This document shows, in pieces, positions 10,056-64,000 of a stretch of 64,000 nt of DNA (the stretch's first letter is position 1; every line of letters begins with the position of its first letter). This stretch comes from Opitutales bacterium. GTDB taxonomy: Bacteria; Verrucomicrobiota; Verrucomicrobiia; Opitutales; PNEW01. The stretch spans positions 192,001 to 256,000 of the forward strand of contig CBDANS010000007.1 of NCBI GenBank assembly GCA_965197745.1, in the 5' to 3' direction. A program made the position numbers and the translations under genes. The notes under the pieces are model-generated. The model had not been told where the DNA came from. It saw only the letters and a list, made by a program, of their open reading frames with translations, and searched no databases.

Positions 10056-10067
10056 AGAATCACCATC

Positions 10068-11019: not shown

Positions 11020-11093
11020 TGCAGGATACAGGATGCAGGATACAGGATGCATGATGCAGGATACAGGTTAGTGAACAGTAAACAGTGATCAGT
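11007..11093. repeat. Heptamer tandem repeat array
   Basis: Nine consecutive 7-mers (GCAGGAT, GCATGAT, GCAGGAT, ACAGGAT, GCAGGAT, ACAGGAT, GCATGAT, GCAGGAT, ACAGGTT; 11007-11069), then AGTGAAC AGTAAAC AGTGATC AGT. Confidence 0.9.
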
Positions 11094-11123
11094 CGAATGC
11101 TCAGGGTTGAATGCAGTTGCCAG

Positions 11124-12404: not shown

Positions 12405-12439
12405 GACAAAATTTGGGTTTCGAAAAAATCAACCGCTAT

Positions 12440-13189: not shown

Positions 13190-13282
13190 GATAAAACTAA
13201 TTAAATTGAGAAAAACAAACGGCGCTCACCCTATTGGAGTAAAACATGGGTCAACCGGCAATTATTACGATGAGGACAGACT

Positions 13283-15337: not shown

Positions 15338-15415
15338 ATGAATCAGGAGTAAGGTAATATAACATTTAAATTGTTGAAGAGGTTATTTTACCGATTGAAT
15401 TGAAGCTATGAGAAA

Positions 15416-48474: not shown

Positions 48475-51400
48475 TTATATAGGGATATGCGTTTGTTTAT
48501 TATAGTCGCGAAAATCCACGCGGAAAAGAATAGCGTAGAGAACGGGAACAATCCCGAGGACGAGCAAAGTTGCGAACAATAATCCAAAAATAATCGCGGC
48601 TGCCATGGGTTGAAAAGTAGGGTTTCCTCTGAAGTATAGAGGGATAATACCGCCTATAGTCGTTATCGTAGTGAGGAGGATGGGGCGCACCCTGTTGAGT
48701 GACGCTTCGACGATGCTGTCCTGAGGCGAAAGTCCTCTCAAGTCGTTATTGATGCGGATACGGTCGATAAGAATGATCGCATTATTTACGACAATACCGA
48801 TGAGAGAGACTACGCCGACAAGAGTCATAAAGCCGAAAGGTTGTCGCGTAATTATTAAGCCGATTACGACACCGATGAGTCCCATCGGAACCGCGGACAT
48901 TATTATAAAAGTGCGCCGAAAAGATCGTGTCTGGCGTATGAGAAGAAGGACGATCAAAAAAGCGGTCCAGGGCAGCTTGTTGATAATAGACTTGTTGGCC
49001 CTTGCAGACTCCTCGCTCTCACCGCTAATGAGGATACTGTATTCATCTCCCCATGTATCTTTCTGCATTTTTATCCACTGCGTTAATTGTTTATCTATTT
49101 CTTTAGGATCGGCATTTTCTCGCAAGTCAGCTCGCACCGTAACCATTCGCTGATAATGTCGCCTGACGATTGAAATCGTCTCGCGGACTTCTTCTATTTC
49201 CGCTATGTCTCCAAGGGTAACGGTTGTCCCTGGTTTGATTCTTGAGTGAATATTCAGCGCTTTTATTTTTTCTATCTCGTTGTCACTGTCGACCATGGCG
49301 TGGACATTGATAGGGATAATCATGGTCCCATCGCGTATACTGTTAGCGGGGATGCCTGTGAGCAGGGATTGTAATGAAATCGCGACATCAAAGTGGGTGA
49401 TACGGGAGCGAAAAGCTTCCATTTCATTGATGACGACGCGGTATTTCTTTACCGGAGGCCCCCAATCATCATGTATATTGTAGATCCCTTGTAATGCGCC
49501 AAGTTTGTCTTTTACCTCATCGACAATATTGAACATCCCATCAATATCCTCTCCCAAGACACGAACTTTGATAGGATATCCAACGGTGGGGCCCGATTCC
49601 AGGGCACGGGCTCGAATTTGAGCCTCGGGTAATAAGGCAGTGCAATATTCCTCTATCTTATTGATCATCTCCGGGATCAGTTTAATCGACGTCAGGTTGA
49701 AGAGAAAGTAAGCATATTCGGGTTTACGTTCTACGGTTCGATGGTTAAGAATGAACCGTGGTGCATTTCTACCAATAAAAGTCGCCCAATTGGTAATACC
49801 TTGCCCGTCGTTTAAATCGGCGAGGAGATCTGATTCTACATAGGCGTCTATTGAACTTACAGCTTTATGTGTATATTCTATGTCTGTGCCCGCGGGAAAT
49901 TCAACTTCCAGGGTGATTATCGGTCTGTCCGAAGGAGGAAAAAATATTTTTGGGATATAGCGGAAACAATATAATGAACCCAAAAATAAAAGAAGGGTGA
50001 GGGTCACAACGAGAAAGGGACGGGGCAACATACAAAGGAGAATATGGTGATACCAACGGTAACCCGGTTTTTCCAATAATGTTTTCACTTTGTGCGGTTT
50101 AACTTTAAAAAGTGAAACTGAGAGTAAAGGGGTTAAAGTGAATGCGAATAAAGTTGAACAAAGAAGGGTTATCGCAACGACCGTAAAAAGAGATGAGACA
50201 TATTCCCCCGCGTTTGATTCTGCCAGATAGATGGGAAGAAATCCGGACAATGTGCTTAAGGCCGCCGTAATGAGAGGACTATGTAACTCTTGAGGCGATT
50301 TTTCAGCTGCAACCATGGGTGCTTCACCGCGTTCACGCAGGGTTATAATGCGCTCGGAGATGACAATATGCGTATCGACGATGATTCCGAAAACGAGAAT
50401 GAAAGCAGCAAGAGCGACAAGGTTTAAATTCATATTACAACCCAGCATTACGACGAGCGAGGAGAGAAAAGCCAACGGCATCATACTGGCAACAATCGAG
50501 CCGGTGCGCACACCGAGGGCAATCATAAGAATTAACATTACGATAACGAGACTTTGTGCGAGATTACCGAAAAAAGAGTTAATACGATTAGCCACACGCT
50601 CTGGTTCGAAGGCGATAAAGTCTAACTCCACACCATCCGGGACCTTGGCCGAAAAAGTTTTTATCAAGGCTTTAACTTCCTGCCCCATCTTTTCTATATT
50701 TCCGCCACTCTTCATGGAAACTGCGAGGCCCATGCAGCGTACCCCTGAAGATTTCATTATACTGTTCGGTGGTTGGTTCAGTTTACGGGTAACCTCAACC
50801 AGATCGCCAAGATAATAGGATTCTTCTTCATCGGGGAGGATAACTTCAAGATTCTGAATATCCTCTACAGATGTCAGCTCACTACTCAACTCCACGGGGT
50901 GCCTCAAATCCCCTTCCAGAATGCTTCCTCCTGGAGCTATCACATTCTGGGCTTCAAGATACATTTTCAATTGGTATGGGGATACTCCTGCCTCAGCCAT
51001 GTCGGTATCGTAAAAATCGACATATATTTTCTCTTCCTGGTCACCCAGGGAGATTACTTGAGATACATTACCGAGACGAAGTAATTTATCGTGGACCTCT
51101 TCGGTGAGTTTTTTTAATTTTGCATAGGTGATATCTTTTCCTGAAACGGTAACAATTGTGCCGTAAACCTCACCATACTCGTCGTTCAAAACAGGTTCCT
51201 GTACCCCTTCAGGCAAATCACTTTTTACCCGATCAATTTTGCGTTGTAACCGTGACCAGATAGGACGCATTTTCTGGTGGCGATCCGCTATTTTGACTAA
51301 AATTATCGAAGCATTTTTTCTTGAGATACTGTGCGCAAACTCCACTTCCGGCACTTCCCTTACCGCTTCTTCGATTTTCCGTGAAACCAAGCTCTCGACT

Positions 51401-51573
51401 CTTTGAGCTGATGCACCGGGATATATAGTGACAATTAAGGTGTATCGAAAGACGATTGGTGGGTCTTCAGTACGCGGCAACTGCATAAAAGCAATAATTC
51501 CCCCTATAAATAAAAAAAATGAGGTCAAAAGAGTGAATCTTGCCTCTTTCAGCGCAATAACCGTAAGTTTCAT
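48475..51573 (-). CDS. RND efflux permease (AcrB/AcrD/AcrF family)
   Basis: LPRTEDP, YPGASA..VE, GIIVD..IVISE, FFPPSDR, GIVVNNAIILID, RVRPILLT, MAAAIIFGL. ATG 51573 chosen as start. Confidence 0.93.
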   Translation of the reverse strand: MKLTVIALKEARFTLLTSFFLFIGGIIAFMQLPRTEDPPIVFRYTLIVTIYPGASAQRVESLVSRKIEEAVREVPEVEFAHSISRKNASIILVKIADRHQKMRPIWSRLQRKIDRVKSDLPEGVQEPVLNDEYGEVYGTIVTVSGKDITYAKLKKLTEEVHDKLLRLGNVSQVISLGDQEEKIYVDFYDTDMAEAGVSPYQLKMYLEAQNVIAPGGSILEGDLRHPVELSSELTSVEDIQNLEVILPDEEESYYLGDLVEVTRKLNQPPNSIMKSSGVRCMGLAVSMKSGGNIEKMGQEVKALIKTFSAKVPDGVELDFIAFEPERVANRINSFFGNLAQSLVIVMLILMIALGVRTGSIVASMMPLAFLSSLVVMLGCNMNLNLVALAAFILVFGIIVDTHIVISERIITLRERGEAPMVAAEKSPQELHSPLITAALSTLSGFLPIYLAESNAGEYVSSLFTVVAITLLCSTLFAFTLTPLLSVSLFKVKPHKVKTLLEKPGYRWYHHILLCMLPRPFLVVTLTLLLFLGSLYCFRYIPKIFFPPSDRPIITLEVEFPAGTDIEYTHKAVSSIDAYVESDLLADLNDGQGITNWATFIGRNAPRFILNHRTVERKPEYAYFLFNLTSIKLIPEMINKIEEYCTALLPEAQIRARALESGPTVGYPIKVRVLGEDIDGMFNIVDEVKDKLGALQGIYNIHDDWGPPVKKYRVVINEMEAFRSRITHFDVAISLQSLLTGIPANSIRDGTMIIPINVHAMVDSDNEIEKIKALNIHSRIKPGTTVTLGDIAEIEEVRETISIVRRHYQRMVTVRADLRENADPKEIDKQLTQWIKMQKDTWGDEYSILISGESEESARANKSIINKLPWTAFLIVLLLIRQTRSFRRTFIIMSAVPMGLIGVVIGLIITRQPFGFMTLVGVVSLIGIVVNNAIILIDRIRINNDLRGLSPQDSIVEASLNRVRPILLTTITTIGGIIPLYFRGNPTFQPMAAAIIFGLLFATLLVLGIVPVLYAILFRVDFRDYNKQTHIPI

Positions 51574-51915
51574 ATAATTGAATCCTGATGGAGAATAACC
51601 ATAATTGATTTTATTTCTTTTGGTAGATTTCCGATCCTCGGTCAATCCAACTTATACACCTTATTATTGCTTTGTTTGTCAGAAAGGCATCATTCTAACG
51701 GATTTTCTATCTTCTCCCTTTGCTTATTGACTGATAGCCTTATTTTTTCCAAAAATGGGCTTTAATTGTGTTTGGCAGTTATCTTAAATGATAAATGGTC
51801 ATAATATTCTTTAAAAATTAATAATGATTCTTATTGAATAATTATAAATTAGCTACATTAACGATGATCATCAGTAGAAATGTTTACCGGATATGTATAT
51901 CGATTTTGTTAACGG

Positions 51916-52170
51916 ACAGAACCGATGGCGATTGTTGGTATCTAATTAACCTGCCAGAAATGGCATGAAATACCAGAGTGATTCTGCAGGTTCTTTTCGA
52001 GAGCTATAATAGTTTTCAGTATCCAATAAACGTCGAACTAAATTTTGAAAGATAAGTGAACAAACCCGGCCCGATGATCGTAATTGATCACCTGCACAAT
52101 CTTATTCCAAGAGACCTTCACTTGGATAGCTTTTTTATGATTAATAAAGCTGACACGAGAAGCATTTTGA
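51916..52170 (+). pseudogene. Possible heavily decayed ketosynthase N-terminal relic
   Basis: One frame reads TEPMAIVGI*...IPE*FC...NP...LTREAF with multiple stops. Spacing from PMA to REA is 234 nt versus 237 nt in the intact KS downstream. Confidence 0.4.
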
Positions 52171-52334
52171 GAACATCAATTCACAGTTTCTAATCTGAAT
52201 TTTTTATCATTTACCTAGACAAGAGAAGGGTCCAAAGCATTAAGATTAATTGAGAATTATAGTATGAAAATTGTGTATCGAATGCATGCTCTAGAGAAGA
52301 GCAGGCCTAGCTCTTTATTGTGGGAGGCAACCGA

Positions 52335-55300
52335 ATGATTAATCAAGGGAAGCGCCCCATAGCGATCATAGGAATAGGTTGCCGGTTTCCTGGTGGTGCA
52401 AAGAACTCAGCCTCTTTCTGGACCTCATTGCGCAATGGCCAGAATGCTATAGTCGAAGTTCCTGAGGATCGCTGGAATCTACAGCGATTTTATGATCCCA
52501 ATCCTCAATTGCCGGGTAAAATGACAACCCGTTGGGGGGGGTTCCTCGATACCATTGATCAGTTTGATGCTCAATTCTTTGGAATTTCGCCCCGCGAAGC
52601 ATTGAGGATGGATCCTCAGCAGAGATGGCTGCTGGAAGTGGCATGGGAGGCACTCGAAGATGGAGGATTAGCTCCCGATCAAGTAGCAGGGTCACGCACC
52701 GGTGTTTTTGTCGGCATTTCAAGCAATGATTATGCGAATATCCAAATGAAAGGGCCCCAGGATGTTGATATGTATACCAACAGTGGGAGCACCCTGAGCA
52801 TAGCTTCTGGCAGAATTTCTTATTTGTTTGATTTAAAGGGTCCAAGCCTGTCGGTTGATACCGCATGTTCATCGGCTCTTGTTGCCGTAAATCTTGCCTG
52901 CAATAGTATCTGGGATGGGCAGTGTGACACAGCTCTGGCAGGTGGAGTAAATGCACTGCTAACCCCTGATTCTTCTATAGGATTCAGCAAAGCGTCCATG
53001 CTGTCACCTGACGGCCGGTGTTACACCTTCGATGAACGGGCAAATGGTTATGTGCGTGGTGAAGGAGCGGGGTTAATCGTGCTCAAGCCGTTGGACGATG
53101 CACTGGAAGATGAAGATCCCATTTATGCCGTAATTCGCTCTAGCATTGTGAATCAAGATGGTCGCACGAGTTCAATGACGGTGCCGGGGCAATTTTCTCA
53201 GGAAGCTATGTTGAACGAAGCTTATGAACAAGCGGGAATCTCGCCGTCGAGAGTTTGTTACATAGAAGCGCATGGCACGGGAACACCGGTAGGGGACCCG
53301 ATTGAAGTTCTTGCCTTAGGGAATATTTTGTCCAAGGGAAGAAAAGCTGAAGATAAATGTGTAATTGGGTCGGTTAAAACGAATATTGGTCATTTAGAAT
53401 CTGCATCAGGTATAGCGGGTCTTATAAAAGCGGCACTGGTTCTAAAATATAAAGAGATTCCTCCTAATTTACATTTTGAAACCCCCAATCCCCATATTCC
53501 CTTTGAAAAACTTAAACTACGGGTTCCAACAAAGTTAGAGTCAATCCCGAAAGGATCAGACCCGGCGGTGGTCGCCGTTAACTCTTTTGGTTTTGGAGGC
53601 ACTAATGCCCATGTGGTATTAGAAGAAGCGCCGGTCATCGCTAAAAGACGGAAAAAAATAAATAAAGATGATGCCCCCAGGCCCTACCTTGTCCCTCTAT
53701 CGGGAAAAGGACAGCAGTCATTAAAAAAGAGTGCTGAGAATCTGGTTGATTTACTATCCGGACAATCGAATGGCACTGAAATATTCCTGCCTGATCTTGC
53801 CCACACGGCAAGCTTGCGCAAGGGGCACCATGACCATCGATTAGCACTCGTTGCGTGTTCGGAAAATGAAGTTATAGTAAAGCTTAATGGGTATCTTTCC
53901 GAGAATAAGGTGAAAGGCCTTGTTGAAGGAAGAGCAAAAACTGAAAATCAAAAAGAAATTGTTTTTATATTCACCGGTCAGGGTCCGCAATGGTGGGCGA
54001 TGGGGCGTGAACTTTTGGAAAAAGATCCGTTATTTCGTAAAAAGATAGAAAAGTGTGACAAACTGTTGAGCGAATACACCTCCTGGTCACTCGTTGAAGA
54101 ATTATCCCGAGATGAAGCCAGTTCCAGGATAGACGATACATCCGTTGCACAACCGGCGATTTTCGCTTTACAAATAGCCTTAGCTGATTGGTGGAAGGCG
54201 AGGGGCGTGTCCCCCACCTGTGTTATCGGGCATAGTGTAGGCGAGGTTGCTGCCGCTTACTGTTCCGGAATCTATACCCTCAACGATGCCATCAAGATAA
54301 TATATCACCGCAGTCACTTACAAGCAACAACGCGCGGCTCGGGACGTATGGTAGTGGTGGCCATTTCACCGGATAAAGCTAAGGCCTTAATTCAGGGGTT
54401 TGAAGATCAAGTGACGATTTCCGCGATCAACAGTCCGGGCCTTGTGACTTTAGCCGGAGATACAAAAGTTTTGGAATCAATAATCGAACCGCTTGAAAAA
54501 GATCAGGTATTTATCCGCTGGCTGGATGTCGATTATGCCTTCCATACAAATAAGATGGACCCTATTAAGGACGATTTACTTCAAGTCCTTTCAGAGATCA
54601 GACCACGCGCTTCAAAAATTCCCTATTACTCAACCGTCAGCGGAGAGGTTATGGACGGAAAGAAGTTAGACGCCAGCTATTGGTGGCGTAATATACGTGA
54701 AACCGTACTTTTTGGTCCGGCGATAGACGTTATTATTAGTAAGGATCACGACCTTTACCTGGAATTGGGCCCGCATCCTTCGCATTCCAGTTCTGTCTTA
54801 GAATGTCTGGCCCACAAAGGGAAGAATGGATCGGTTTTGCCCTCGTTGCGACGAAAAGAGTCGGATCAGCAGACTTTGCTTGAAACTCTAGCCACTTTAT
54901 ATACCCGGGGATATCCCATCCAATGGGATGCGCTCTATGGAAAGGAAGGACAATTTGTTCAATTGCCATCCTACCCCTGGAAGTCTGAACGACTATGGTT
55001 AGAATCACCCGTCTCTGAAGAGTACCGTTTTGGATCCATTGTGCATCCCCTCCTCGGGGAAAAAGTAAATGCTCCGAGCCCAACATGGGAATGCGAGCTT
55101 GATCCCCGCGCCTTACCCTACCTCGCCGATCACAGACTTCACGATTCCATGGTATTTCCAGGCGCCGCCTATGTTGAGATCGCGCTCGCGGCCCTTAATG
55201 AGCTATATCCCAATGAACCTTTTGTCATTGAAGATATCAAAATTCTTAAAGGGTTGTTCATGTCAGAAGACGGTGTCATTACCATTCAAATGGTCTGTGA

Positions 55301-58300
55301 TAAAACTGATGATTCCTTTAATATATTCAGTTCTACGGATACGACTGCTGGGGAATGGGAAATTCACGCCCAGGGACGCTATCAGAAATTAGCACCGCGT
55401 GATCCTGGCAATTTGGCTGTCGATCAAATTAAAGACGCGATGGAGGAGGAGATCGATCACGCCAAAATTTATTCAGATTTTGATGATGTTGGATATCAGT
55501 TCGGTCCCTGCTTCAGAGAAGTACAAAAAATCTGGAGAAAAGATGGGGAATCGTTGGCTGAGATTCAGGTAACAGACGCGGTTTTAGAAGATATGGAGTC
55601 AAACTTCTTTCAACCTGCAGTTTTGGATGCCTGCTTTCAAAGTGGCAAGGAATCCAGAGTTAAGGATGAAAACAGAAAGGCACGCGACAATTTTTATATG
55701 CCTATCGCTCTGAAAAGAGTGAGGTTCTTTAAAAGTCCGACTCCCCGTCTTTGGTGTTATACGCAATTAGTGAGCGACGAAGGAGACCGCGTTGAATATG
55801 ATCTTAAAGTCGCCAATGACGATGAATCTATCATCGCCGAGATCAAAGGCTTTTGCGTTCAGCGGGTAGATCAGTCTGAGACAAAAGCAGAAGAGGATCT
55901 CGAAAATTGCTATTATCAATTTCACTGGCATCCCTCATCGCTTCCCGGAGCGCGGCGTGACCCAATTGAACTCATAAGTCCCGAACGGCTTATAGAAGTA
56001 TTGGATCCTGAAATTATCCCTACCTACGATAAATATAATCTTGATGGTTACGTTAGTGATTTTATGCCTCAAATGGAAACTTTGAGCTTTAATTTCATTC
56101 TCACGGCTCTCCGAAAAATGGGATGGAAGCCGGCAATAGGTGATCGGGTATCGATTGACAGTTTAATCGAAGAATTGGGCATCATGGAGCAACATCACCG
56201 CTTATTGCAGCATTCCATATTTGAGACATTGAAAAAAGAAGCGGTGATTCAAGCGACCGAGGATGGAGAATGGGAAGTAGCCCGTACCCCTGATTCATTA
56301 AATTTAGAAGATCTATGCAGTGCCCTAAGAAATAACTTTCCTCACTTATGGGCGGAAATGGATTTGCTCATAGATTGTGGGTATGTTCTGGCAGAAGTGC
56401 TTACGGGTGAAAAAGATCCGCTCGATGTCATTTTTCCTGCCGGTGATCAGAAAAAAATTGAAAGTTTTTATAAGGATTCTTCTGACTTTCAGGCCTACAA
56501 CAGCTTGCTCCAAAAGGCCATCGACAAGCTTGCCAGTGAGCTGCCAGAAAAGGGCAAGCTGCGTATTCTGGAAATTGGAAGTGGCACCGGTTCTTTGACG
56601 GAAAGCTTGCTTGAAGTCTTATCCCCCGATCGTACCGAATATTACTTTACCGACATATCTCCCTTATTCATCGCATCGGCGAAAGAAAATTTTAAAAATT
56701 ATGATTTTATAGAATATAGTATTCTCGATATTGAGAAACCACCGGGAGAGCAGAAATTTGATCTCCAATCATACGATTTGGTTTTAGCTACGAATGTCCT
56801 GCACGCCACTAAAGATTTAAAGCAAACACTCCGTCATATTAATCAGCTGATGACGGAAGAAGGCCTTTTGCTATTTCTCGAAGTTACGACTAAAAGGTTA
56901 TTTTTGGATCTGGTTTTTGGTCTGCTTCCCGGCTGGTGGAGATATTCAGACGATGAATTGCGGACGACACATGCTTTGATTACTCGCCAGGAGTGGGAGG
57001 GGCTTCTTAATGAAAGTGGTTTTCGAAACGTAAATTCCTTTGTCAATACAATGGAGGAAAGCCACGCCAATCAATCCGTGTTCTTAGCCAACGCCTCCGA
57101 GCTTTTAACGGAGATGGATCGCAAAGAAGCCATCGATGAATCCTCAGATAAGAATAAAACCTGGTTGATTTTCGCTGATCAAAGCGGTTTTGCCGAGTCT
57201 CTAGTGAATCAAATGGAAGAGAGGGATAGCACATGTATCATGGTTACCCCGGGTGAATCCTTTGTCGAGGTGGGAGAACGCTGCTACCAGATTCATCCCG
57301 AACAATTGCAAGACATGGAGGATCTATTCACTCATCTCGAGCTTGATCCGAATGCCCTGCAAGGAATTATTCACATGTGGAGCCTTGACCATCCCACCGC
57401 TGATATAACAACACCTGAATCTCTCGAACTTGCTCAACAAACAGGATGCCTCAATGTTTTAAATCTCATTCAAACGCTTGTGAAATCAGAGCCCGATCCC
57501 GCACCACGGGTTTGGATGATCACGCACGGCATGCAGTTGGTTTCCGATACGGATAGAAACGAACGCATTGCTTCAGCTCCTTTAATCGGGCTCGCCCGGG
57601 TCGCCAATAATGAGCATTGGGATTATCACTGGACAGCTATTGATCTGGAATCTTCGAGCACTCCATTGGAATTAGAATTTTTAGTTAATGAGATCTGTTC
57701 TGCGGACGATGAATTGGAAATTGCTTACCGTGGAGGGGAGCGGTTTGTTAATCGAATAGAGAAAACGGTTAAGGATGAAATACCAGCAAGAACAAAAGAT
57801 GCGGTAAGACGTGATGGGGTAATTCCTTACCGACTCGAGATACCGACTCCCGGAATTCTTAATAATTTACGATTAAATGAGACAGAGCGCAGCGCGCCAG
57901 GACCTCAGGAAATAGAAATAAAAGTTGCTGCGGTCGGCCTGAACTTCCGTGACGTGATGAAAGTTTTAGGCATGTACCCGGGTAACAGCAGAGATTTGAA
58001 GTGGCTTGGGGACGAATGTTCGGGAACCGTTGTTTCTGTTGGTGAAGAAGTGAAAAATTTCCAGGTGGGTGATGAAGTTATAGGCATGATGGTTCCCTAT
58101 TGTTGTCGATCTTACGCCATCGTGAATGAGGCACTTGTTTTTCACAAACCTTCCAAGCAGTCATTCGAAGAGGCCGCGACCCTGCCGATTGTTTTCCTCA
58201 CCGCGCATTATACTTTGAACCATTTAGCCCACCTTCGTAAAGGTGAGAAAATATTAATACACGCGGGTGCAGGCGGTGTCGGCCAGGCTGCTATTCAAAT

Positions 58301-61300
58301 GGCTAAGCACATCGGGGCCGAGATTTTTGCAACCGCAGGTTCACCTGAAAAACGTGAGTTTCTTAAAAGCCAGGGAATAGCCCATGTCATGGACGACAGG
58401 ACATTGGATTTTGCTGATGAAGTCATGGAAATTACTGAAGGGAAAGGTGTCGATGTCGTATTGAACCAATTGGCTGGTGACTTTATCACGAAGAGTTTAT
58501 CGGTGCTCGCTCCCTTTGGAAGGTTTCTGGAAATCGGGAAAGTAGATATCTATCAAAACACAAAAATTGGGCTCGAACCATTTAAGAAGAACCTGACCTA
58601 TTTTGCCGTTGATCTTTCGAAACATATAGAAGAACGACCCGAGATAATTACCATGATGCTTCAAGAGTTATCGGTAATGTTTGAAAGAGAAGAGCTGAAG
58701 CCATTACCGTTTAAAGCATTTCCTATCACACAAGCAGTCGAGGCTTTCCGTTATTTTGCTCAATCGAAACACATCGGTAAAAATGTACTCTCACTGCAAG
58801 AGGATTCTATCCTTGTTGGCTTGCCTTCCGAGCAAAAAACACTGTTCCGTGCTGATGGAACATACCTTATCACCGGTGGATTAGGGGGATTCGGTCTGGA
58901 AGTTGCCAAGTGGATGGTAAAATCAGGGGCGAAAAATTTAGTCCTCATGGGACGTTCGGGTGCATCGACCGATGATGCCATGGAAGCTTTACAGACGATG
59001 CGAAATAACGGCGCCCAGGTGGTAGTGGCCAAAGCCGATGTAGTCATCCATGACGATGTAGAACGCGTCTTAAACAAGATCGATGAGGAAATGCCTCCTT
59101 TAAAGGGGGTCATTCATGCTGCTATGGTTTTGGATGATGGATTCCTTGTTCAGATAGACACTGAGAAATTCAAAAAGGTACTGCGTCCAAAAATGATAGG
59201 CGCCTGGCATTTACATCAGCTGACTCAGCAGATGCATATAGATTTCTTCGTGCTCTTTTCTTCTGCTTCGTCAATGCTTGGACCGAACGGACAGGGAAAC
59301 TATGCTTCGGCCAATTTCTTCCTGGATGCGCTCGCCCATTATCGCAATGCCATGGGTCTTCATGCCCTCACGGTCAACTGGGGTGCATTATCCGAAGCCG
59401 GATACGTGGCCCGGAATGAAAACGTTGCCAAGTATCTGGATATTCTGGGCCTGGAAAGTTTCACTCCGCAGGAAGCACTCAGCATTTTTGCTCAAATCCT
59501 GCCGAAAAATCCAGTTCAACTGGGAGCTTCCCATGTGAACTGGAAAACGATTTCAAAGATAAATCCACAGATGGGTAGTTCGAAGTTGTTCTCCCTGGTT
59601 ATAAGCCAGGATGCACTTTCAGAAAAGACCGGAGCCCACGCCCATTCATTCAGGCCTCAACTTCTTGGCGCTGCGCCTGAAGACCGGCATAAAATGGTAG
59701 AGAATTATATAAGTGAACAGGTAGCTCAAGTCTTTGGCACCTCAGCCGATAAAATTGATCGCGATACACCCCTGACCACGATTGGCCTCGATTCATTGAT
59801 GGCCATAGAGTTGATGAACCGCCTGGAATCTAATTTAGGAATTAATTTGCCCATGGGTAAATTCCTGCAAGGGCCGAATATTTCTCAACTTGCCATTCCC
59901 GTTCTCGAATTACTGGTTAAGTCTGATTCCGGTTCGGATACAGCGAGTTCGCCTCGAAATGTAACGGCGGGAGAAGAATTGATGGAGTTTCCCTTATCCC
60001 AGGGACAACGAGCGCTCTGGTTTTTACACCGCCTCGCGCCAAGCAGCGCTGCCTACAACCTGGTCTTCAGTTCGCGCATTACTCCTTATGTCGACATTGA
60101 CATTATGAAAAAGGCTTTTGCCCGTATCTTTCATTCCCATCCGATGCTCGACATTGTTATCTCCACGGTCGATGGAGAACCCATGCAGACATTGCAAAAA
60201 GGACGCAGTGTCGATTTTCGAGAACACGATGCAACCCAACTTAGCGATGATGAACTTAAGGCATTGCTCGTAGAGCACGCGCATAAACCCTTCAATCTTC
60301 AAACCGGCCCGGTTATCCGTTTGGAGCTGTTCCGTACTGCGACGGGGTCCCATGTGACGCAACTGGCTATGCACCACATTGTTTCCGATGCATGGTCTAT
60401 CGTGATTGTTCTCAACGAGCTCATGGAAACTTACTTGGCCATCAAGGCCGGTCGTGAGCCTGACGTTCAACCCCCTGAATTCAGGTATTCAGACTATGTA
60501 AACTGGCAGAAAAACCTCTTGCAAAGTCCTGAAGCTGATCGTTTGGGCAGTTATTGGTATGAATATCTCGCAGACTCATCGATGGTCCTTGATTTACCCA
60601 CGGACCACCCGCGTCCACCAGTCCAGTCTTTTAACGGCGCGACCTTTGGTTTCAAACTTGAAGAGGACCTTACGCAGAAGGTTTTGAAACTGGCTGAGGA
60701 GAAAAGAGTCACCCTTTATACTACCCTTCTGTCCGTATTTAATATTTTAATGCATCGTTATTGTAATCAAGAGGACATTATCATCGGGAGTCCTTTATCC
60801 GGACGTATAAATAAAGAATTTCATCATATTACCGGTTATTTTATCAATCCCGTTGCGTTGCGTAGCAGAATGGGTGATGACCCCGCTTATTTTGATTACC
60901 TGGATCGTGTCTATCAATCGGTAATTGGCGCTTTAGAAAATCAGGATTATCCATTTCCACTTCTTGTCGATCGACTTAAAGTAAAGCGTGATCCCAGTCG
61001 ATCGCCTATATTCCAGGCCAGCTTTTCTATGGAGAGAACACCTGGAGTTGATGATCAGGGCATAGCTGTATTTCTTATTGGTCAGGGCGGGCATAAATTT
61101 AATGCCGAAGACATGGTGATCGAGTCGATAGATCTTACTTTGCGCATGGCACAATTTGAGATTACACTCGTGGTGGAAGAAGCAGGGGGCAATATTTACG
61201 GCTGCTGGCAATATAACAGCGATCTGTTCGAGCCTGAAACGATTAGTCGTCTTAGCGGTTTTTATAAACAGTTGCTTAACGAAATCGTATCTCATCCTGA

Positions 61301-64000
61301 GAAAAAGATTTCCGAGTTTAATTTGCTTTCAGCGGATGAAGAAAAACAGGAAATAGTAGACTGGAACGCAACTGCCTCTAAATATCCTGAGCATTTATGC
61401 CTCCACCATATTATCTCTGACCAGTCAGCTAAAACACCCCATTCAACGGCGATCAGTTTCGATGGGGAATCCATGACTTATGAGGAATTGGAGAGAAAAT
61501 CAAACGGCCTGGCCCTAGCATTACATCAGAAAGGTATCGGTCCGGACACCCCCGTTGGGCTCTATCATGAACGGTCCATGAACATGGTTGTCGGGTTACT
61601 AGGTATACTTAAAGCTGGTGGTTGTTATGTGCCTCTGGATCCAGAATTCCCACCCCTCAGGCTGGAACAGATGCTCGACAATGCAAACCCATCTGTGGTG
61701 GTTACACAAAGCGAACTGGCGAGTGCCTTACCTCAAGGTCAATGGGAATCTATCTTTGTCGAAGAAGTGAGTGAGGCGGAGACAACACCTCAAGTCGATG
61801 GCCTGAATCCCGATTCGCTTGCTTATATTATTTATACATCCGGGTCTACAGGCGTGCCAAAGGGTGTGGAAATTTCCCATCAGTCTCTGGTTAACTTTTT
61901 ATATTCAATGCAGAGGGAGCCAGGTTTAAGTGATGAGGATAAACTTTTAGCAGTAACGACACTTTCTTTTGATATTTCAGGATTGGAACTCTACCTGCCA
62001 CTGATTTCCGGTGCTCAGGTTATTCTGGCCTCTCGTAAAGTCGCAGCTGATGGCAGACAGCTGGCAGCTCTCATAAAAAGCACCAATCCCACCATTATAC
62101 AGGCTACCCCGGCTACCTGGCAGATGTTACTGGATTCGGGCTGGTACGGAAAACAAAACCTTCGGATACTTTGTGGAGGTGAACCCCTACCACCGGATTT
62201 GGCGGAGCATTTATGTGAAATGGGTGCGGAAGTTTGGAATCTTTATGGTCCGACCGAAACAACCATCTGGTCTACGGCGTCACAAATTGAAAAAGGTGAT
62301 GATGTCGTCTCTATCGGCCGCCCCATCGCCAATACAAAAATATACATTTTAGATGAGGAAGAAAAACCCCTTCCCACGGGCTTTGCCGGCAATCTTTACA
62401 TTGGCGGTGACGGTCTGGCCCGAGGCTATCACAAACAACCTGAGCTCACTAAGGAATCATTTGTTGAGTTGTCGTTAAATCAGCAGGAAACTGAGCGCGT
62501 ATACAAAACCGGTGACTTAGCGCGCTATTTATCCGATGGCTCAATTGAATGCATTGGTCGCCGCGACTCTCAAATTAAACTGCGTGGTCACCGTATCGAG
62601 CTAAGTGAAATCGAAACGGTGCTTCGTGATCATCCCGCTGTAAAAAGTGCTTTGGTCCTGATGCGCAAAGATATGCCGGGAGGTCCGGGTATTGCCGCTT
62701 ATATTATACCCATGGAAAATAACGACAGATTAGTTCCGGATCTGCGATCACACCTCACTGAGCGCTTGCCTCAATATATGCAGCCTTCTGCTTATATGGT
62801 CCTCGATGAATTCCCGCTCACCCCCAATAATAAAATTGACCGCAATCATCTCCCGCTTCCCTCTTTAAAGCGTTCCGATTTGCGAACAGATTATTTGGCA
62901 CCCCAAACGCCGACTGAGAAGATTCTCTGTGATATATTAAATCAGGCTTTCAAGAGTGATAAGATTGGCATTCACGACAATTTCTTCGAGTTGGGTGGCG
63001 ATTCACTAATGGCGGTGGAAATATTGTCGAGTATCACTTCCGCTTTTAACCGTGAATTACCGATTGAGGTCTTTTTGCGCAATCCTACGGTGGAAAGTCT
63101 GGGCTATTATTTTGAACTCACTCCCGAAAATATTGAGGTGAATTCCTCCCCCCATAAGAATGGAGATTCAAAGGTTAATAACATTGATGACTTGTTTAAA
63201 AGCAGTTATCTGGATATCGAGCATGTAAATGGTAAAAATGGGGATCGCACTAAGTTCCCTGAGGTGGATGCCGTTGCTCTTGCTTACATCCCCGATGCTT
63301 TCCTCCCCCTCACGGGTCTTTCCAAAGATGAAATTTCACGTCAGTGGTTTCAACATCAGCCTTTTGTCAGCAATTACTACGAGACTCCATTTGGAAAAAT
63401 CGCTATCGTCATGTTACCGCGGTTAGGAGCTGAACTTTACAAAGATCAAGTGCCTCTCGGTGATAATATCTTAAGCTCCTTAAAATTGGCTGCCGATATG
63501 GGGGCCAGTACCGTATCCCTGACCGGCCTCATCCCCTCGGCTACTGACTATGGAAGAAGTATCTCACACTGGATAAACGGCCACGACAATTTACCCGCCA
63601 TAACTACGGGGCACGCCACAACCACAGCAACGATCGTGAAAACGATTACCGGTATGCTTGAGCAGACAATGCGTGACTTCAGTGAGGAAAAAATTGCCAT
63701 CGTCGGTTTGGGATCCATCGGCTATGCCACACTGCGACTTATGCTTGAAGTGATGCCGCATCCGGTTGAGCTTATCCTCTGTGATCTTTACCGAAAAGCG
63801 GACATTCTTGAGAATATTAGAAGTGAACTGATTGAAAAGGTTGGCTTTAAAGGAGCTATCCGTGTGGTGACAACGCGAGGCCAATTGCCCGACGCCATAT
63901 ACGATGCATCTTTTGTCCTTGGGGCCAGCAATGTTCCTGGTATCCTGGATATCAATCGCCTGCGTCCCGGCACCTTATTGGTAGACGATTCATTTCCACC
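52335..64000 (+). CDS. Hybrid type I PKS-NRPS (partial, about 3888 codons in window): KS-AT-DH-cMT-ER-KR-ACP-C-A(Gly)-PCP-acyl-ACP-reductase-like
   Basis: GGGAGG RBS at 52322, ATG 52335 (MINQGKRPIAIIGIGCRFPGG). Same-frame motifs: DTACSS 52857, HGTGT 53271, GHSVG 54228, YAFH 54534, DHRLHDSMVFP 55128, LRILEIGSGTG 56559, LIHAGAGGVG about 58254, YLITGGLGGFG about 58863, IGLDSLM 59781, MHHIVSDAWS 60369, LAYIIYTSGSTGVPKG 61818, DNFFELGGDSL 62976, ITTGHATT 63600, GLGSIG 63705. No stop seen before the window end. Confidence 0.93.
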   Translation, partial: MINQGKRPIAIIGIGCRFPGGAKNSASFWTSLRNGQNAIVEVPEDRWNLQRFYDPNPQLPGKMTTRWGGFLDTIDQFDAQFFGISPREALRMDPQQRWLLEVAWEALEDGGLAPDQVAGSRTGVFVGISSNDYANIQMKGPQDVDMYTNSGSTLSIASGRISYLFDLKGPSLSVDTACSSALVAVNLACNSIWDGQCDTALAGGVNALLTPDSSIGFSKASMLSPDGRCYTFDERANGYVRGEGAGLIVLKPLDDALEDEDPIYAVIRSSIVNQDGRTSSMTVPGQFSQEAMLNEAYEQAGISPSRVCYIEAHGTGTPVGDPIEVLALGNILSKGRKAEDKCVIGSVKTNIGHLESASGIAGLIKAALVLKYKEIPPNLHFETPNPHIPFEKLKLRVPTKLESIPKGSDPAVVAVNSFGFGGTNAHVVLEEAPVIAKRRKKINKDDAPRPYLVPLSGKGQQSLKKSAENLVDLLSGQSNGTEIFLPDLAHTASLRKGHHDHRLALVACSENEVIVKLNGYLSENKVKGLVEGRAKTENQKEIVFIFTGQGPQWWAMGRELLEKDPLFRKKIEKCDKLLSEYTSWSLVEELSRDEASSRIDDTSVAQPAIFALQIALADWWKARGVSPTCVIGHSVGEVAAAYCSGIYTLNDAIKIIYHRSHLQATTRGSGRMVVVAISPDKAKALIQGFEDQVTISAINSPGLVTLAGDTKVLESIIEPLEKDQVFIRWLDVDYAFHTNKMDPIKDDLLQVLSEIRPRASKIPYYSTVSGEVMDGKKLDASYWWRNIRETVLFGPAIDVIISKDHDLYLELGPHPSHSSSVLECLAHKGKNGSVLPSLRRKESDQQTLLETLATLYTRGYPIQWDALYGKEGQFVQLPSYPWKSERLWLESPVSEEYRFGSIVHPLLGEKVNAPSPTWECELDPRALPYLADHRLHDSMVFPGAAYVEIALAALNELYPNEPFVIEDIKILKGLFMSEDGVITIQMVCDKTDDSFNIFSSTDTTAGEWEIHAQGRYQKLAPRDPGNLAVDQIKDAMEEEIDHAKIYSDFDDVGYQFGPCFREVQKIWRKDGESLAEIQVTDAVLEDMESNFFQPAVLDACFQSGKESRVKDENRKARDNFYMPIALKRVRFFKSPTPRLWCYTQLVSDEGDRVEYDLKVANDDESIIAEIKGFCVQRVDQSETKAEEDLENCYYQFHWHPSSLPGARRDPIELISPERLIEVLDPEIIPTYDKYNLDGYVSDFMPQMETLSFNFILTALRKMGWKPAIGDRVSIDSLIEELGIMEQHHRLLQHSIFETLKKEAVIQATEDGEWEVARTPDSLNLEDLCSALRNNFPHLWAEMDLLIDCGYVLAEVLTGEKDPLDVIFPAGDQKKIESFYKDSSDFQAYNSLLQKAIDKLASELPEKGKLRILEIGSGTGSLTESLLEVLSPDRTEYYFTDISPLFIASAKENFKNYDFIEYSILDIEKPPGEQKFDLQSYDLVLATNVLHATKDLKQTLRHINQLMTEEGLLLFLEVTTKRLFLDLVFGLLPGWWRYSDDELRTTHALITRQEWEGLLNESGFRNVNSFVNTMEESHANQSVFLANASELLTEMDRKEAIDESSDKNKTWLIFADQSGFAESLVNQMEERDSTCIMVTPGESFVEVGERCYQIHPEQLQDMEDLFTHLELDPNALQGIIHMWSLDHPTADITTPESLELAQQTGCLNVLNLIQTLVKSEPDPAPRVWMITHGMQLVSDTDRNERIASAPLIGLARVANNEHWDYHWTAIDLESSSTPLELEFLVNEICSADDELEIAYRGGERFVNRIEKTVKDEIPARTKDAVRRDGVIPYRLEIPTPGILNNLRLNETERSAPGPQEIEIKVAAVGLNFRDVMKVLGMYPGNSRDLKWLGDECSGTVVSVGEEVKNFQVGDEVIGMMVPYCCRSYAIVNEALVFHKPSKQSFEEAATLPIVFLTAHYTLNHLAHLRKGEKILIHAGAGGVGQAAIQMAKHIGAEIFATAGSPEKREFLKSQGIAHVMDDRTLDFADEVMEITEGKGVDVVLNQLAGDFITKSLSVLAPFGRFLEIGKVDIYQNTKIGLEPFKKNLTYFAVDLSKHIEERPEIITMMLQELSVMFEREELKPLPFKAFPITQAVEAFRYFAQSKHIGKNVLSLQEDSILVGLPSEQKTLFRADGTYLITGGLGGFGLEVAKWMVKSGAKNLVLMGRSGASTDDAMEALQTMRNNGAQVVVAKADVVIHDDVERVLNKIDEEMPPLKGVIHAAMVLDDGFLVQIDTEKFKKVLRPKMIGAWHLHQLTQQMHIDFFVLFSSASSMLGPNGQGNYASANFFLDALAHYRNAMGLHALTVNWGALSEAGYVARNENVAKYLDILGLESFTPQEALSIFAQILPKNPVQLGASHVNWKTISKINPQMGSSKLFSLVISQDALSEKTGAHAHSFRPQLLGAAPEDRHKMVENYISEQVAQVFGTSADKIDRDTPLTTIGLDSLMAIELMNRLESNLGINLPMGKFLQGPNISQLAIPVLELLVKSDSGSDTASSPRNVTAGEELMEFPLSQGQRALWFLHRLAPSSAAYNLVFSSRITPYVDIDIMKKAFARIFHSHPMLDIVISTVDGEPMQTLQKGRSVDFREHDATQLSDDELKALLVEHAHKPFNLQTGPVIRLELFRTATGSHVTQLAMHHIVSDAWSIVIVLNELMETYLAIKAGREPDVQPPEFRYSDYVNWQKNLLQSPEADRLGSYWYEYLADSSMVLDLPTDHPRPPVQSFNGATFGFKLEEDLTQKVLKLAEEKRVTLYTTLLSVFNILMHRYCNQEDIIIGSPLSGRINKEFHHITGYFINPVALRSRMGDDPAYFDYLDRVYQSVIGALENQDYPFPLLVDRLKVKRDPSRSPIFQASFSMERTPGVDDQGIAVFLIGQGGHKFNAEDMVIESIDLTLRMAQFEITLVVEEAGGNIYGCWQYNSDLFEPETISRLSGFYKQLLNEIVSHPEKKISEFNLLSADEEKQEIVDWNATASKYPEHLCLHHIISDQSAKTPHSTAISFDGESMTYEELERKSNGLALALHQKGIGPDTPVGLYHERSMNMVVGLLGILKAGGCYVPLDPEFPPLRLEQMLDNANPSVVVTQSELASALPQGQWESIFVEEVSEAETTPQVDGLNPDSLAYIIYTSGSTGVPKGVEISHQSLVNFLYSMQREPGLSDEDKLLAVTTLSFDISGLELYLPLISGAQVILASRKVAADGRQLAALIKSTNPTIIQATPATWQMLLDSGWYGKQNLRILCGGEPLPPDLAEHLCEMGAEVWNLYGPTETTIWSTASQIEKGDDVVSIGRPIANTKIYILDEEEKPLPTGFAGNLYIGGDGLARGYHKQPELTKESFVELSLNQQETERVYKTGDLARYLSDGSIECIGRRDSQIKLRGHRIELSEIETVLRDHPAVKSALVLMRKDMPGGPGIAAYIIPMENNDRLVPDLRSHLTERLPQYMQPSAYMVLDEFPLTPNNKIDRNHLPLPSLKRSDLRTDYLAPQTPTEKILCDILNQAFKSDKIGIHDNFFELGGDSLMAVEILSSITSAFNRELPIEVFLRNPTVESLGYYFELTPENIEVNSSPHKNGDSKVNNIDDLFKSSYLDIEHVNGKNGDRTKFPEVDAVALAYIPDAFLPLTGLSKDEISRQWFQHQPFVSNYYETPFGKIAIVMLPRLGAELYKDQVPLGDNILSSLKLAADMGASTVSLTGLIPSATDYGRSISHWINGHDNLPAITTGHATTTATIVKTITGMLEQTMRDFSEEKIAIVGLGSIGYATLRLMLEVMPHPVELILCDLYRKADILENIRSELIEKVGFKGAIRVVTTRGQLPDAIYDASFVLGASNVPGILDINRLRPGTLLVDDSFP

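Follow-up and report, generated by a model that had tools for sequence, protein, structure and literature searches.

The window analysed here, a stretch of 64,000 nucleotides, ends inside a very large forward-strand gene for a megasynthase, with a divergent gene for an RND permease upstream and, on the contig continuation, a sulfotransferase gene directly downstream (window-equivalent 64443-65564). The ORF listing gives an open frame at 52320..63998 (+) of 3893 aa with no stop up to the window end, and translation from the ATG at 52335 yields 3888 stop-free residues inside the window, in agreement with the earlier note on this DNA, which had read a single frame from that ATG to the window's edge. 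Beyond the edge the frame continues for 139 further codons to a stop at window-equivalent 64416-64418, 418 nt past the window, and we found that translation of the window together with the contig continuation meets neither an internal stop nor a frameshift, giving one unbroken frame of 4027 aa. A gap of 24 nt divides the end of this frame from the sulfotransferase gene. We prefer ATG 52335 to the in-frame GTG at 52320 because a Shine-Dalgarno sequence (GGGAGG, 52321-52326) stands 7 nt 5' of the ATG, and from the ORF listing, the translation and this site we place the megasynthase ORF at 52335..64000 (+), with its end at window-equivalent 64418. The RND permease, a presumed exporter, is encoded at 48475..51645 on the reverse strand (ACR_tran, 8.5e-135), its true start being probably 15-25 codons inside the ORF. 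Inspection of the sequence between these two genes revealed 689 bp of AT-rich, divergent intergenic DNA (51646..52334, given no strand) in which promoters are presumed to lie; it has no Rfam match, and a scan of it for promoters and terminators found promoter-like sites no commoner than in shuffles and nothing above chance.

Pfam analysis resolves the megasynthase into the order KS-AT-DH-cMT-psiKR-ER-KR-ACP-C-A-PCP followed by a terminal domain, so that one polypeptide carries a fully reducing, C-methylating PKS module together with a single NRPS module. The earlier note had stated the same domain order and architecture, and each of the motifs it quoted (HAGAGGVG, LDD, YASAN and the KS Cys/His/His) was found where the corresponding domain lies. 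All of the catalytic motifs checked are intact and are conserved across 89 collinear homologues. The KS (aa 7-382, 52353..53480 (+); PF00109 2.7e-100, PF02801) does begin at residue 7 without a loading or docking region, as had been proposed, and contains Cys178 (DTACSSA), His313 (EAHGTGT) and His353 (NIGHLE), with its motifs retained in 88-89 of 89 family members. It is followed on the same strand by the AT (aa 543-858, 53961..54908; Pfam), which has GHSVGE and a YAFHT motif present in 85/89 family members and is read as malonyl-CoA-type, xAFH having been associated with malonyl specificity (PMC3908369). The DH (aa 904-1182, 55044..55880; H933xxxDxxxxP, GYQFGPCF, LDACFQ) and the C-methyltransferase (aa 1391-1566, 56505..57032; LEIGSGTGS, NVLHAT, LLFLEVT) were both assigned from Pfam and motif conservation, and the best solved relatives of the cMT are the CurJ cMT (210 bits) and LovB (207 bits). 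Next come a structural (pseudo-)KR subdomain (aa 1610-1720, 57162..57494; PF21394, 4.9e-13), the ER (aa 1856-2152, 57900..58790), whose nucleotide-binding motif HAGAGGVG is intact as first noted, and the KR (aa 2175-2353, 58857..59393; TGGLGGFG, LDD, Y2323-ASAN), the last two again from Pfam and motif conservation. The PKS half closes with the ACP (aa 2458-2520, 59706..59894; Pfam), whose motif (GLDS2487LMA) occurs in 89/89 family members. The succession DH-cMT-ER-KR is the general order in fully reducing type I modules.

The NRPS half opens with a Condensation domain (aa 2551-3005, 59985..61349 (+); HHIVSDAWS; Pfam, motif conservation), and the genome holds no second Condensation-domain match. 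The Adenylation domain (aa 3029-3500, 61419..62834 (+); Pfam) has a code that we read from its motifs as D-I-L-Q-L-G-L-I-W-K and that is kept across the family as DILQ[LF]GL[IV]WK. Glycine codes of the form DILQLG.IWK have been published, for example DILQLGMIWK and DILQLGVI (PMC12283262, PMC5466765), and the resemblance suggests that the A domain selects glycine. The PCP follows at about aa 3530-3595 (62922..63119 (+); Pfam PP-binding in 2 stretches; GGDS3557LMA).

Straight after the PCP, at the C-terminus, stands a domain to which Pfam assigns no family: a search with the terminal 427 aa returned nothing, including no NAD_binding_4 or SDR-type R match. In a PDB sequence search, the same region matched the crystal sequence of the CarI "terminal amidation domain" (TAD; 9e4s_A) with an E value of 7.7e-89, residues 40-420 of the query aligning with residues 39-416 of the chain in one stretch that takes in both the N-terminal and the Rossmann subdomains. 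The terminal domain is homologous in sequence to the CarI TAD, and we annotate it as an AAR-like TAD at aa 3640-4020, of which the first 249 residues are in the window (63252..64000 (+)). An R/Dieckmann terminal domain of the kind found in fungal hybrids was considered and rejected on these two results. The TAD has been described as an NAD-binding, acyl-ACP-reductase-like fold with an invariant Cys (PDB 9e4s/9e4x; Rankin et al., bioRxiv 10.1101/2024.10.28.620694), its motifs being defined in that work as TTG, GxGxxG, an NAD-selecting Asp, an Asp-Asp-Ser-Gly-cisPro loop and the Cys. Similar to CarI, whose TAD likewise occupies some 400 aa following the last PCP, the domain studied here has TTG-His (3757-3760), GLGSIG (3791-3796), the NAD-selecting Asp3817 and the loop V-D-D3885-S-F-P inside the window, and the predicted catalytic Cys3956 (ITGC) beyond its end; within the loop Phe replaces Gly (D-D-S-F-P vs D-D-S-G-cisPro) and both Asp are retained. 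The TADs of CarI, VatR and HcaD are NRPS termini for carmabin, vatiamide and hectoramide; CarI-type TADs end long cyanobacterial peptide lines, whereas here the TAD ends a one-module PKS and a glycine module.

Up to the PCP the megasynthase has the order of the fungal HR-PKS-NRPS hybrids (PsoA, and LovB-type enzymes for the PKS parts), KS-AT-DH-cMT-ER-KR-ACP-C-A-T, and the earlier description 'fungal-style' holds to that extent; however, its sequence affinity is bacterial and its terminal domain differs. Using scores to solved structures as a proxy for a KS tree, we found that KS-AT reaches 653-791 bits to bacterial PKSs (among them CurL 739, PikA 714, DEBS 657 and Mas 653) compared with 489-517 bits to the fungal PsoA (489) and LovB (517), that the ER-KR region has its best match in Mas (416 bits), and that C-A-PCP has its best solved relative in LgrA (residues 782-1791, 816 bits vs 268 bits for PsoA). 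Each of the three segments is, by these scores, far closer to bacterial than to fungal enzymes. Fungal hybrids moreover terminate in R/DKC, whereas the megasynthase has a TAD, plus an intact ER motif. That the gene is a horizontally acquired fungal-type HR-PKS-NRPS, as its PsoA-like order up to the PCP might suggest, appears extremely improbable considering these scores, a GC content like that of the remainder of the window, a family spread vertically in Verrucomicrobiota, and a terminal domain of bacterial type, of which the authors of the preprint found no homologue in eukaryotes (bioRxiv 10.1101/2024.10.28.620694).

The gene is no orphan: it is a member of a large, collinear family of about 4000 aa in Verrucomicrobiota that accounts for 89 of the 120 matches listed. 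Among the matches listed every named family member (n=10) comes from Verrucomicrobiota, the nearest relative being an Opitutales MAG, and the verrucomicrobial host suggested earlier, here one of the Opitutales, is upheld. Public databases already list the family, though with a generic name; our literature search found no paper characterising it or its product, and the SSN cluster lists of the preprint may include members. A search of genome contigs for related loci with the TAD gave only one locus. In a phylum sample the TAD of the megasynthase was found in 0/400 other genomes, a Tyr-type TAD query likewise gave 0/400 genomes, and a class sample gave no further carrier (0/400), results that point to rarity among the sampled genome stretches searched and not to absence. 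Two lineages can be told apart by their terminal domains. In the Opitutales lineage the active site is still of the CarI type, with TTG-His and the loop Asp; the larger lineage has TTG-Asp and a loop Tyr, and in it an SGNH-like partner of about 740 aa replaces the sulfotransferase. The verrucomicrobial 'cluster 3' TADs of the preprint also have Tyr in the loop, in contrast to the Asp of the TAD studied here.

Across 60 related genomes the megasynthase is present in 8, and orthologues of both neighbours follow it strictly: the sulfotransferase (at least 49% identity) and the RND permease each occur in 8/8 megasynthase genomes and in 0/52 others, counts that are not independent because the genomes are related and the carriers come from four families. 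The sulfotransferase lies directly downstream in 7/8 relatives, and in the one exception (G447) it is found about 0.5 Mb from the megasynthase. In 7/7 relatives with a visible flank the RND gene stands upstream in divergent orientation, and the remaining neighbours vary. The earlier note had set the RND gene aside, but it proves to be a conserved partner, and the conserved core across the four families consists of RND, megasynthase and sulfotransferase and nothing else. The permease is only a distant relative of any named subfamily, scoring 394 bits where the cut-off is 1250, and no gene for a membrane-fusion or outer-membrane partner is adjacent to it. The sulfotransferase, whose only solved relatives are PDB 2zq5 and 2z6v, is a putative PAPS-type enzyme; an APS kinase and an Sfp-size PPTase are encoded in the genome. 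The text of the preprint on TADs mentions no such partner (the word 'sulfotransferase' occurs 0 times).

These observations together make it likely that the locus encodes a stand-alone reducing PKS of one module, joined to a glycine NRPS, also of one module, and to a TAD, at the core of a three-gene RND/megasynthase/sulfotransferase unit. Were the protein instead a module within a conventional modular line of several proteins, its partners would have to lie elsewhere, and a second type I PKS (KS-AT-DH-ER-KR-ACP) is indeed present on another contig. However, this second PKS is unlinked and has its own terminal ACP and an in-frame TAA, the genome has one C domain only, the KS starting at residue 7 leaves no N-terminal docking region, and the core conserved in four families holds no further synthase gene. 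Neither side of the megasynthase shows another PKS within 20 kb, and a check for loading or partner PKS or NRPS genes nearby, with the contig extended downstream, likewise found none; the earlier statement that no PKS gene lies upstream and that the RND gene (48475-51645, -) is divergent is correct. We therefore hold the modular reading to be very improbable. The 511-aa ORF that follows the second PKS was considered as a TAD and rejected.

Given a KS without a loading module, the PKS would be primed directly, either by an acyl thioester that primary metabolism supplies or by an acetyl- or malonyl-derived starter. The AT would feed malonyl units, and the cMT, KR, DH and ER would together give an alpha-methylated, saturated extension. 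Iterative use of the module is plausible, and we think it rather probable that it is used more than once, in a Mas-like manner. Among NCBIfam profiles the best match is Pks2 (1376 bits, under its 2400-bit cut-off), and the closest named profiles, Mas and Pks2, extend fatty-acyl primers; together with the absence of a loading domain this would also fit a module that extends a long-chain primer from fatty-acid synthesis just once, with methylation and full reduction, leading to a 2-methyl-acyl glycine derivative. Mas and Pks2 nevertheless work iteratively, and no gene for an acyl-activating enzyme is conserved next to the megasynthase. A single extension was deemed possible for the one-module sponge-symbiont PKSs (PMC3908369), although the bacterial one-module PKS-NRPSs of the PTM (polycyclic tetramate macrolactam) type iterate (PMC8399814), and we consider one round possible but the less probable course. 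The C domain would then move the finished acyl chain from the ACP to Gly-S-PCP, yielding an N-acyl-glycyl-S-PCP.

Release would begin with transfer of this chain by the TAD onto Cys3956 beside bound NAD. The TAD-ended pathways with known products that are cited by Rankin et al. lead to terminal amides (bioRxiv 10.1101/2024.10.28.620694), and because of this precedent we take a primary amide (N-acylglycinamide) as the most likely released end, while giving it only about an even chance. 'Amidation' is a hypothesis in itself, because in the sole study of TADs the activity of the CarI/VatR TAD could not be reconstituted by its authors (bioRxiv 10.1101/2024.10.28.620694). Moreover, an N-acylglycinamide has no obvious hydroxyl for sulfation, so that reductive release, or else an incompletely reduced chain, would fit the sulfotransferase better. 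In AAR-like reductive release, to which we attach a distinctly lower probability, the chain would leave as an aldehyde, an N-acyl-aminoacetaldehyde, which would pass through an N-acylethanolamine-type alcohol to an N-acyl-aminoethyl sulfate. The fold and catalytic Cys of the TAD match those of AAR, there are weak matches to the thioester-reductase part of PigE and to the acyl-ACP reductase TIGR04058, and the conserved sulfotransferase needs an acceptor, for which an alcohol is the usual one; the swf system provides a precedent, with a one-module PKS and a protein of reductase and sulfotransferase domains (PMC3908369). Against this, the known TAD products just mentioned are amides and not aldehydes or alcohols, the TAD keeps the Asp that chooses NAD(H) over NADPH together with a loop Asp argued to favour NAD+, and no second reductase is conserved at the locus. 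Whether released as the preferred amide or in reduced form, the product would be sulfated by the sulfotransferase and exported by the RND pump, and because the megasynthase is co-inherited with both, it is probably an exported sulfated lipid.

The mycobacterial Mas/Pks2 systems, with MmpL (RND) export and Stf sulfotransferases, likewise place an RND gene beside such a synthase, and Pks2/MmpL8/Stf0 is a possible functional parallel in its sulfolipid logic. The exporter there is MmpL-like and the one here AcrB-like; those systems take their branches from methylmalonyl-CoA and pass the chain to trehalose, whereas here methyl branches would come from the cMT acting on malonyl units and the chain would pass to glycine. 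Stand-alone PKSs of the Mas/Sup/Swf type end after the ACP (in Mas, with a C-like domain) and give a free or transferred fatty acid, whereas the megasynthase continues as C-A-PCP-TAD. Likened by description and not by sequence, the swf and sup clusters of sponge symbionts share with it a fully reducing stand-alone module without a loader and an xAFH malonyl-type AT (PMC3908369). In swf the pairing of SwfA (KS-AT-DH-ER-KR-ACP) with SwfB (reductase plus sulfotransferase) resembles that of TAD and sulfotransferase here, but swf has no NRPS module, TAD or cMT, and there the sulfotransferase forms one protein with an SDR-type reductase (PMC3908369). The PTM synthases (for example SkoA and the HSAF synthase) are bacterial PKS-NRPSs with an iterative module (PMC8399814, PMC11724479); they are described as KS-AT-DH-KR-ACP-C-A-PCP-TE with an ornithine-specific A domain (PMC8399814) and TE/Dieckmann release, lacking the cMT and ER that the megasynthase has and differing from its glycine code and TAD.

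We tentatively suggest, as one possibility, that what the triad makes and exports is an anionic lipid of a class not described before: an N-acyl-glycine amide, methyl-branched and sulfated, or the reduced form of such an amide. If so, the mycobacterial PKS/MmpL/Stf sulfolipid logic would have a verrucomicrobial counterpart, and marine Verrucomicrobiota, members of a phylum from which, to our knowledge, very few metabolites have been characterised, would be the source of a new class of lipids. TADs terminate many orphan NRPS and PKS lines, and the present family, which combines a single PKS module and a single glycine module with one TAD and two partners, is the simplest natural TAD system met in our analysis, in which the functions of the partners (sulfation, export) constrain the likely released end and for which the acyl-glycyl-S-PCP substrate is easy to synthesise. 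The two TAD lineages also form a natural experiment, His/Asp with a sulfotransferase vs Asp/Tyr with the SGNH-like partner, and if both types release chemically different ends their comparison could show what TADs do. Within the wider PKS background, the KS-AT search returned 50,389 proteins at E<=1e-30, and the resulting list, ranked by summed scores, consists mostly of multimodular PKSs.

We found that the megasynthase is encoded in a single open frame (52320..63998, +, 3893 aa in the window ORF scan) that is stop-free to the window end, and that the 3888 residues translated within the window from ATG 52335 onward contain no stops. On the source genome contig, where the window corresponds to G000:C7:192001-256000, a further 139 codons follow before a stop at window-equivalent 64416-64418. 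Counted from the ATG, the protein has 4027 aa, and the uninterrupted frame read in an earlier note made from the sequence alone is borne out. GGGAGG lies 7 nt 5' of ATG 52335, and the GC content of the gene is similar to that of the remainder of the window. Pfam places, all on the + strand, KS (aa 7-382), AT (aa 543-858), DH (aa 904-1182), cMT (aa 1391-1566), pseudo-KR (aa 1610-1720), ER (aa 1856-2152), KR (aa 2175-2353), ACP (aa 2458-2520), C (aa 2551-3005) and A (aa 3029-3500) domains, with a second carrier domain (PCP) after A, in agreement with the order the note had given, which ended in an extra domain; the Pfam search returned no family for the ~400 terminal residues.

When the last 427 residues were searched against the Protein Data Bank, they matched 9e4s_A and 9e4x_A (E 8e-89, ~380 residues aligned), whose molecule name is 'amino acid adenylation domain protein', and weakly PigE; in NCBIfam the domain likewise matched acyl-ACP reductase (AAR) and the PigE profile only weakly, below threshold. 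Judging from the match and the molecule name, 9e4s and 9e4x appear to be the crystal structures of the terminal amidation domain (TAD) of Rankin et al. (bioRxiv 10.1101/2024.10.28.620694). According to that preprint, CarI, VatR and HcaD, which make products with terminal primary amides, each end in a TAD; the domain has a fold similar to cyanobacterial acyl-ACP reductase, binds NAD(H) and not NADP(H), and has an invariant Cys within reach of the PCP arm and next to the nicotinamide. The preprint's authors did not obtain turnover. All the signatures described there are present in the megasynthase, namely T-T-G at 3757-3759, GLGSIG, Asp3817, the Asp-Asp-Ser loop, which here reads D-D-S-F-P (a Gly to Phe change), and the catalytic Cys3956, which lies beyond the window end and was therefore not visible to the earlier note. 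By these sequence features, the loop Gly to Phe change being the one departure, the megasynthase is a member of the TAD-terminated synthetases, with a putative amide-releasing activity.

A protein search with the TAD only found 285 matches at E<=0.001, ranging from 2214 to 7048 aa; among the 120 that were listed, 89 (query included) are 3900-4150 aa long and carry all eleven domains in identical order, with 63-87% KS identity. An organism is named for 10 of these listed collinear proteins, in all 10 cases Verrucomicrobiota and mostly 'Verrucomicrobiales bacterium', and the annotated product name, 'amino acid adenylation domain-containing protein', is a generic one. Searching contigs gave one relative, at 87% identity, labeled 'MAG: Opitutales bacterium'. 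Within the same order, 8 of 60 related genomes, spread over four families, have the TAD, vs 0/400 genomes of a class-wide sample and 0/400 other genomes of a phylum-wide sample, so that in the genomes searched the gene is uncommon and its distribution patchy. TAD-bearing frames in these eight genomes are 4030-4064 aa long, with one of 1332 aa in a fragmented assembly. At locus L021 (G403:C19), in an 82% complete fragmented assembly, the megasynthase is spread over three successive ORFs (553, 2172 and 1305 aa), which probably reflect assembly-error frameshifts and not a real split. Eleven listed proteins (P0102, P0103, P0105, P0108-P0110, P0112, P0115, P0117, P0119 and P0120) form a separate ~2500-aa group in which KS-AT-DH-ER-KR-ACP, without a cMT or an NRPS module, is followed directly by the TAD; by analogy with acyl-ACP reductase, their TAD would act on acyl-ACP. 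A search of the literature, with MIBiG and the preprint supplements outside its scope, found no paper characterizing the TAD-ended megasynthase family or its product.

An alignment of the megasynthase and 88 homologues of full length (3900-4150 aa, 89 rows in all, drawn from the 120 listed proteins, with the remaining 31, shorter or longer, left out) shows that all motifs checked are present in the megasynthase and conserved: DTACSS, EAHGTGT and N[IV]GHLE in the KS, GHSVGE and YAFHT (85/89) in the AT, HxxxDxxxxP and LDACF[HQ] in the DH, LE[IV]G[AS]GTGS, NV[ILV]HAT and LEVT in the cMT, HAG[AT]GGVG in the ER, TGGxGGFG, LDD and Y-x-x-x-N in the KR, GLDSLMA in the ACP (89/89), HH[IM][IV]SDAWS in the C domain and GGDSL in the PCP. 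The KS catalytic motifs, ER HAGAGGVG and KR LDD of the earlier reading are among them. By the rule given in PMC3908369, the xAFH form seen in this AT motif indicates malonyl-CoA selection. Such an AT fits the presence of a C-methyltransferase. Pocket residues of the A domain, located via the A4, A5 and A10 anchors in GrsA numbering, read D-I-L-Q-L-G-L-I-W-K in the megasynthase and DILQFGLVWK in the family majority of the same alignment, and the best solved relative of C-A-PCP (816 bits) is LgrA residues 782-1791, which in linear gramicidin synthase form the glycine module. The prediction of glycine for the A domain is thus well supported, both by this relative and by the match of the code to published glycine codes, among them DILQLGMIWK (in PMC12283262, where Gly-activating domains share a common code varying only at positions 299, 322 and 330) and DILQLGVI (in PMC5466765).

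The earlier note had called the enzyme fungal-style; its domain order is indeed shared with fungal hybrids, but its sequence affinities are bacterial. Among solved structures, KS-AT scores highest to 7zma (791 bits), followed by CurL (739), PikA (714), DEBS (657) and Mas (653), vs 517 bits for the fungal LovB and 489 for the fungal PKS-NRPS PsoA. For C-A-PCP the scores are 816 bits to LgrA vs 268 to PsoA; ER-KR finds its best match in Mas (416 bits), and the cMT is about equally close to CurJ (210 bits) and LovB (207 bits). An exhaustive protein search with KS-AT, ranked by summed score, gave only multimodular PKSs among the matches listed. DH-cMT-ER-KR is the usual order in fully reducing type I modules. 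Given these bacterial-leaning scores and the generality of that order, the likeness to fungal hybrids is on sequence evidence one of architecture only and not of descent, and we reject a fungal-type hybrid, to which neither KS-AT nor C-A-PCP scores as high as to bacterial enzymes. Nor is the enzyme near-unique, with 89 collinear proteins among the 120 listed.

That the megasynthase might be one module of a modular line is very unlikely. The only Condensation-domain match in the source genome is its own, the conserved core of the megasynthase loci is without a loading module, docking region, acyl ligase or carrier protein, and the second type I PKS is unlinked. KS matches in this genome comprise the megasynthase, three FabF/B-like genes, one weak 25-bit match and that second PKS, a KS-AT-DH-ER-KR-ACP protein of ~2130 aa at 9808-16209 (+) of L037 (G000:C5:300000-319999). 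It has a single in-frame TAA (L037:11629-11631) inside the AT at a conserved 'Q-I-A-Q-P' position, which may mark a pseudogene or reflect misassembly; downstream of this PKS come a 511-aa ORF that matches no Pfam family and is no TAD, and then a hybrid histidine kinase.

In the relatives, a sulfotransferase homologue (49-71% identity) lies immediately 3' of the megasynthase in 7/8, and an RND permease homologue (49-75% identity) is divergent and upstream in 7/7 with a visible flank, whereas the acetyl-CoA-synthetase-like, FAD-oxidoreductase and GT21-like neighbors seen in the window are shared only by relatives from its own family. Whole-genome searches found orthologues (at least 49% identity) of each partner in 8/8 megasynthase-bearing relatives vs 0/52 others, where five genomes have only sulfotransferase paralogues (31-34%) and the best RND match is 33%; the genomes are kin from four families, so these counts overstate independence. 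It is clear that RND, megasynthase and sulfotransferase form one unit. The exception is the genome G447 (locus L018; G447:C3:1382346-1383434; G447:C3:436274-439330), in which the sulfotransferase orthologue lies ~0.5 Mb away, its place after the megasynthase is taken by a MiaB-like radical-SAM gene, and a second RND copy (47% identity) is present. The sulfotransferase belongs to Sulfotransfer_3 (1.4e-29), has a GHWRSGTT PAPS-type loop and has 2zq5 and 2z6v as its only solved relatives; also present in the source genome are genes for an APS kinase and a single PPTase of Sfp size. The RND protein is AcrB-like, well under all named subfamily cut-offs, and no membrane-fusion or outer-membrane partner gene flanks it at 48475-51645 (-). 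Its ORF has a listed TTG start and 1056 aa; the relatives are shorter (1027-1043 aa) and align only from ~residue 17-25, so the true start is probably downstream of the TTG.

Combining the observed anatomy, intact sites, homologies and co-inheritance, we infer a pathway in which the KS would be primed directly, the AT would load malonyl units, and the cMT, KR, DH and ER would give methylated, saturated extension. We lean towards repeated use of the PKS module, Mas-like or PTM-like, which we rank somewhat above a single extension, a doubtful reading. The C domain would then form N-acyl-glycyl-S-PCP, and the chain would move onto TAD Cys3956 and be released, the product being sulfated and finally exported. 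In this the megasynthase would work like bacterial one-module PKS-NRPSs of the PTM type and like the Mas/Swf stand-alone reducing modules, though it belongs to neither group. An amide is our best guess for the released product, held at even odds, because amides are what the TAD-ended pathways cited by Rankin et al. yield where the product is known. The main alternative, AAR-like reduction by the TAD, is only a tentative possibility; after further reduction it would leave an ordinary hydroxyl acceptor for the sulfotransferase, and it has a precedent in the swf clusters, which according to PMC3908369 pair a one-module PKS with a protein containing reductase and sulfotransferase domains. Together, RND, megasynthase and sulfotransferase make up a well-defined orphan lipid pathway of three genes, through which the open question of TAD chemistry could become testable.

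Two types of TAD can be told apart within the family. The loop is VDDSFPP in 14 rows of the 89-row alignment (the megasynthase and Opitutales relatives) and VDYSFPP in the other 75, and this Tyr form matches cluster 3 of the preprint, mostly verrucomicrobial, where Tyr replaces Asp2170 (bioRxiv 10.1101/2024.10.28.620694). Across 139 TAD segments (120 listed proteins and 19 loci), 44 combine TTG-His with loop Asp and 92 combine TTG-Asp (once Asn) with loop Tyr; no mixed pair occurs in these 136, the loop pattern being unmatched in three rows. The co-varying residues of the megasynthase are aa 3760 (nt 63612-63614) and aa 3885 (nt 63987-63989). In a FastTree phylogeny of the 139 segments the Tyr type is a single clade (support 99, 92 rows) neighbored by the 22 rows of Asp-type PKS-NRPS TADs, which are separate from the 25 rows of other TADs, so that Asp/His, as in CarI, looks ancestral in this quick, midpoint-rooted tree. 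Opitutales loci are Asp-type in 8/8 cases, and all of the 11 metagenome loci retrieved by a Tyr-type query carry that type. The sulfotransferase adjoins the megasynthase in 8/9 Asp-type loci (window locus included) vs 0/11 Tyr-type metagenome loci within 10 kb downstream, the two sets coming from different queries and not being independent samples. On these data the sulfotransferase partnership is confined to the Asp-type (Opitutales) lineage. A ~740-aa protein with a GDSL/SGNH-like domain, found in 0/9 Asp-type loci, follows the megasynthase in 10/11 of the Tyr-type loci (L023-L033), for example at L030:11264-13480 (+).
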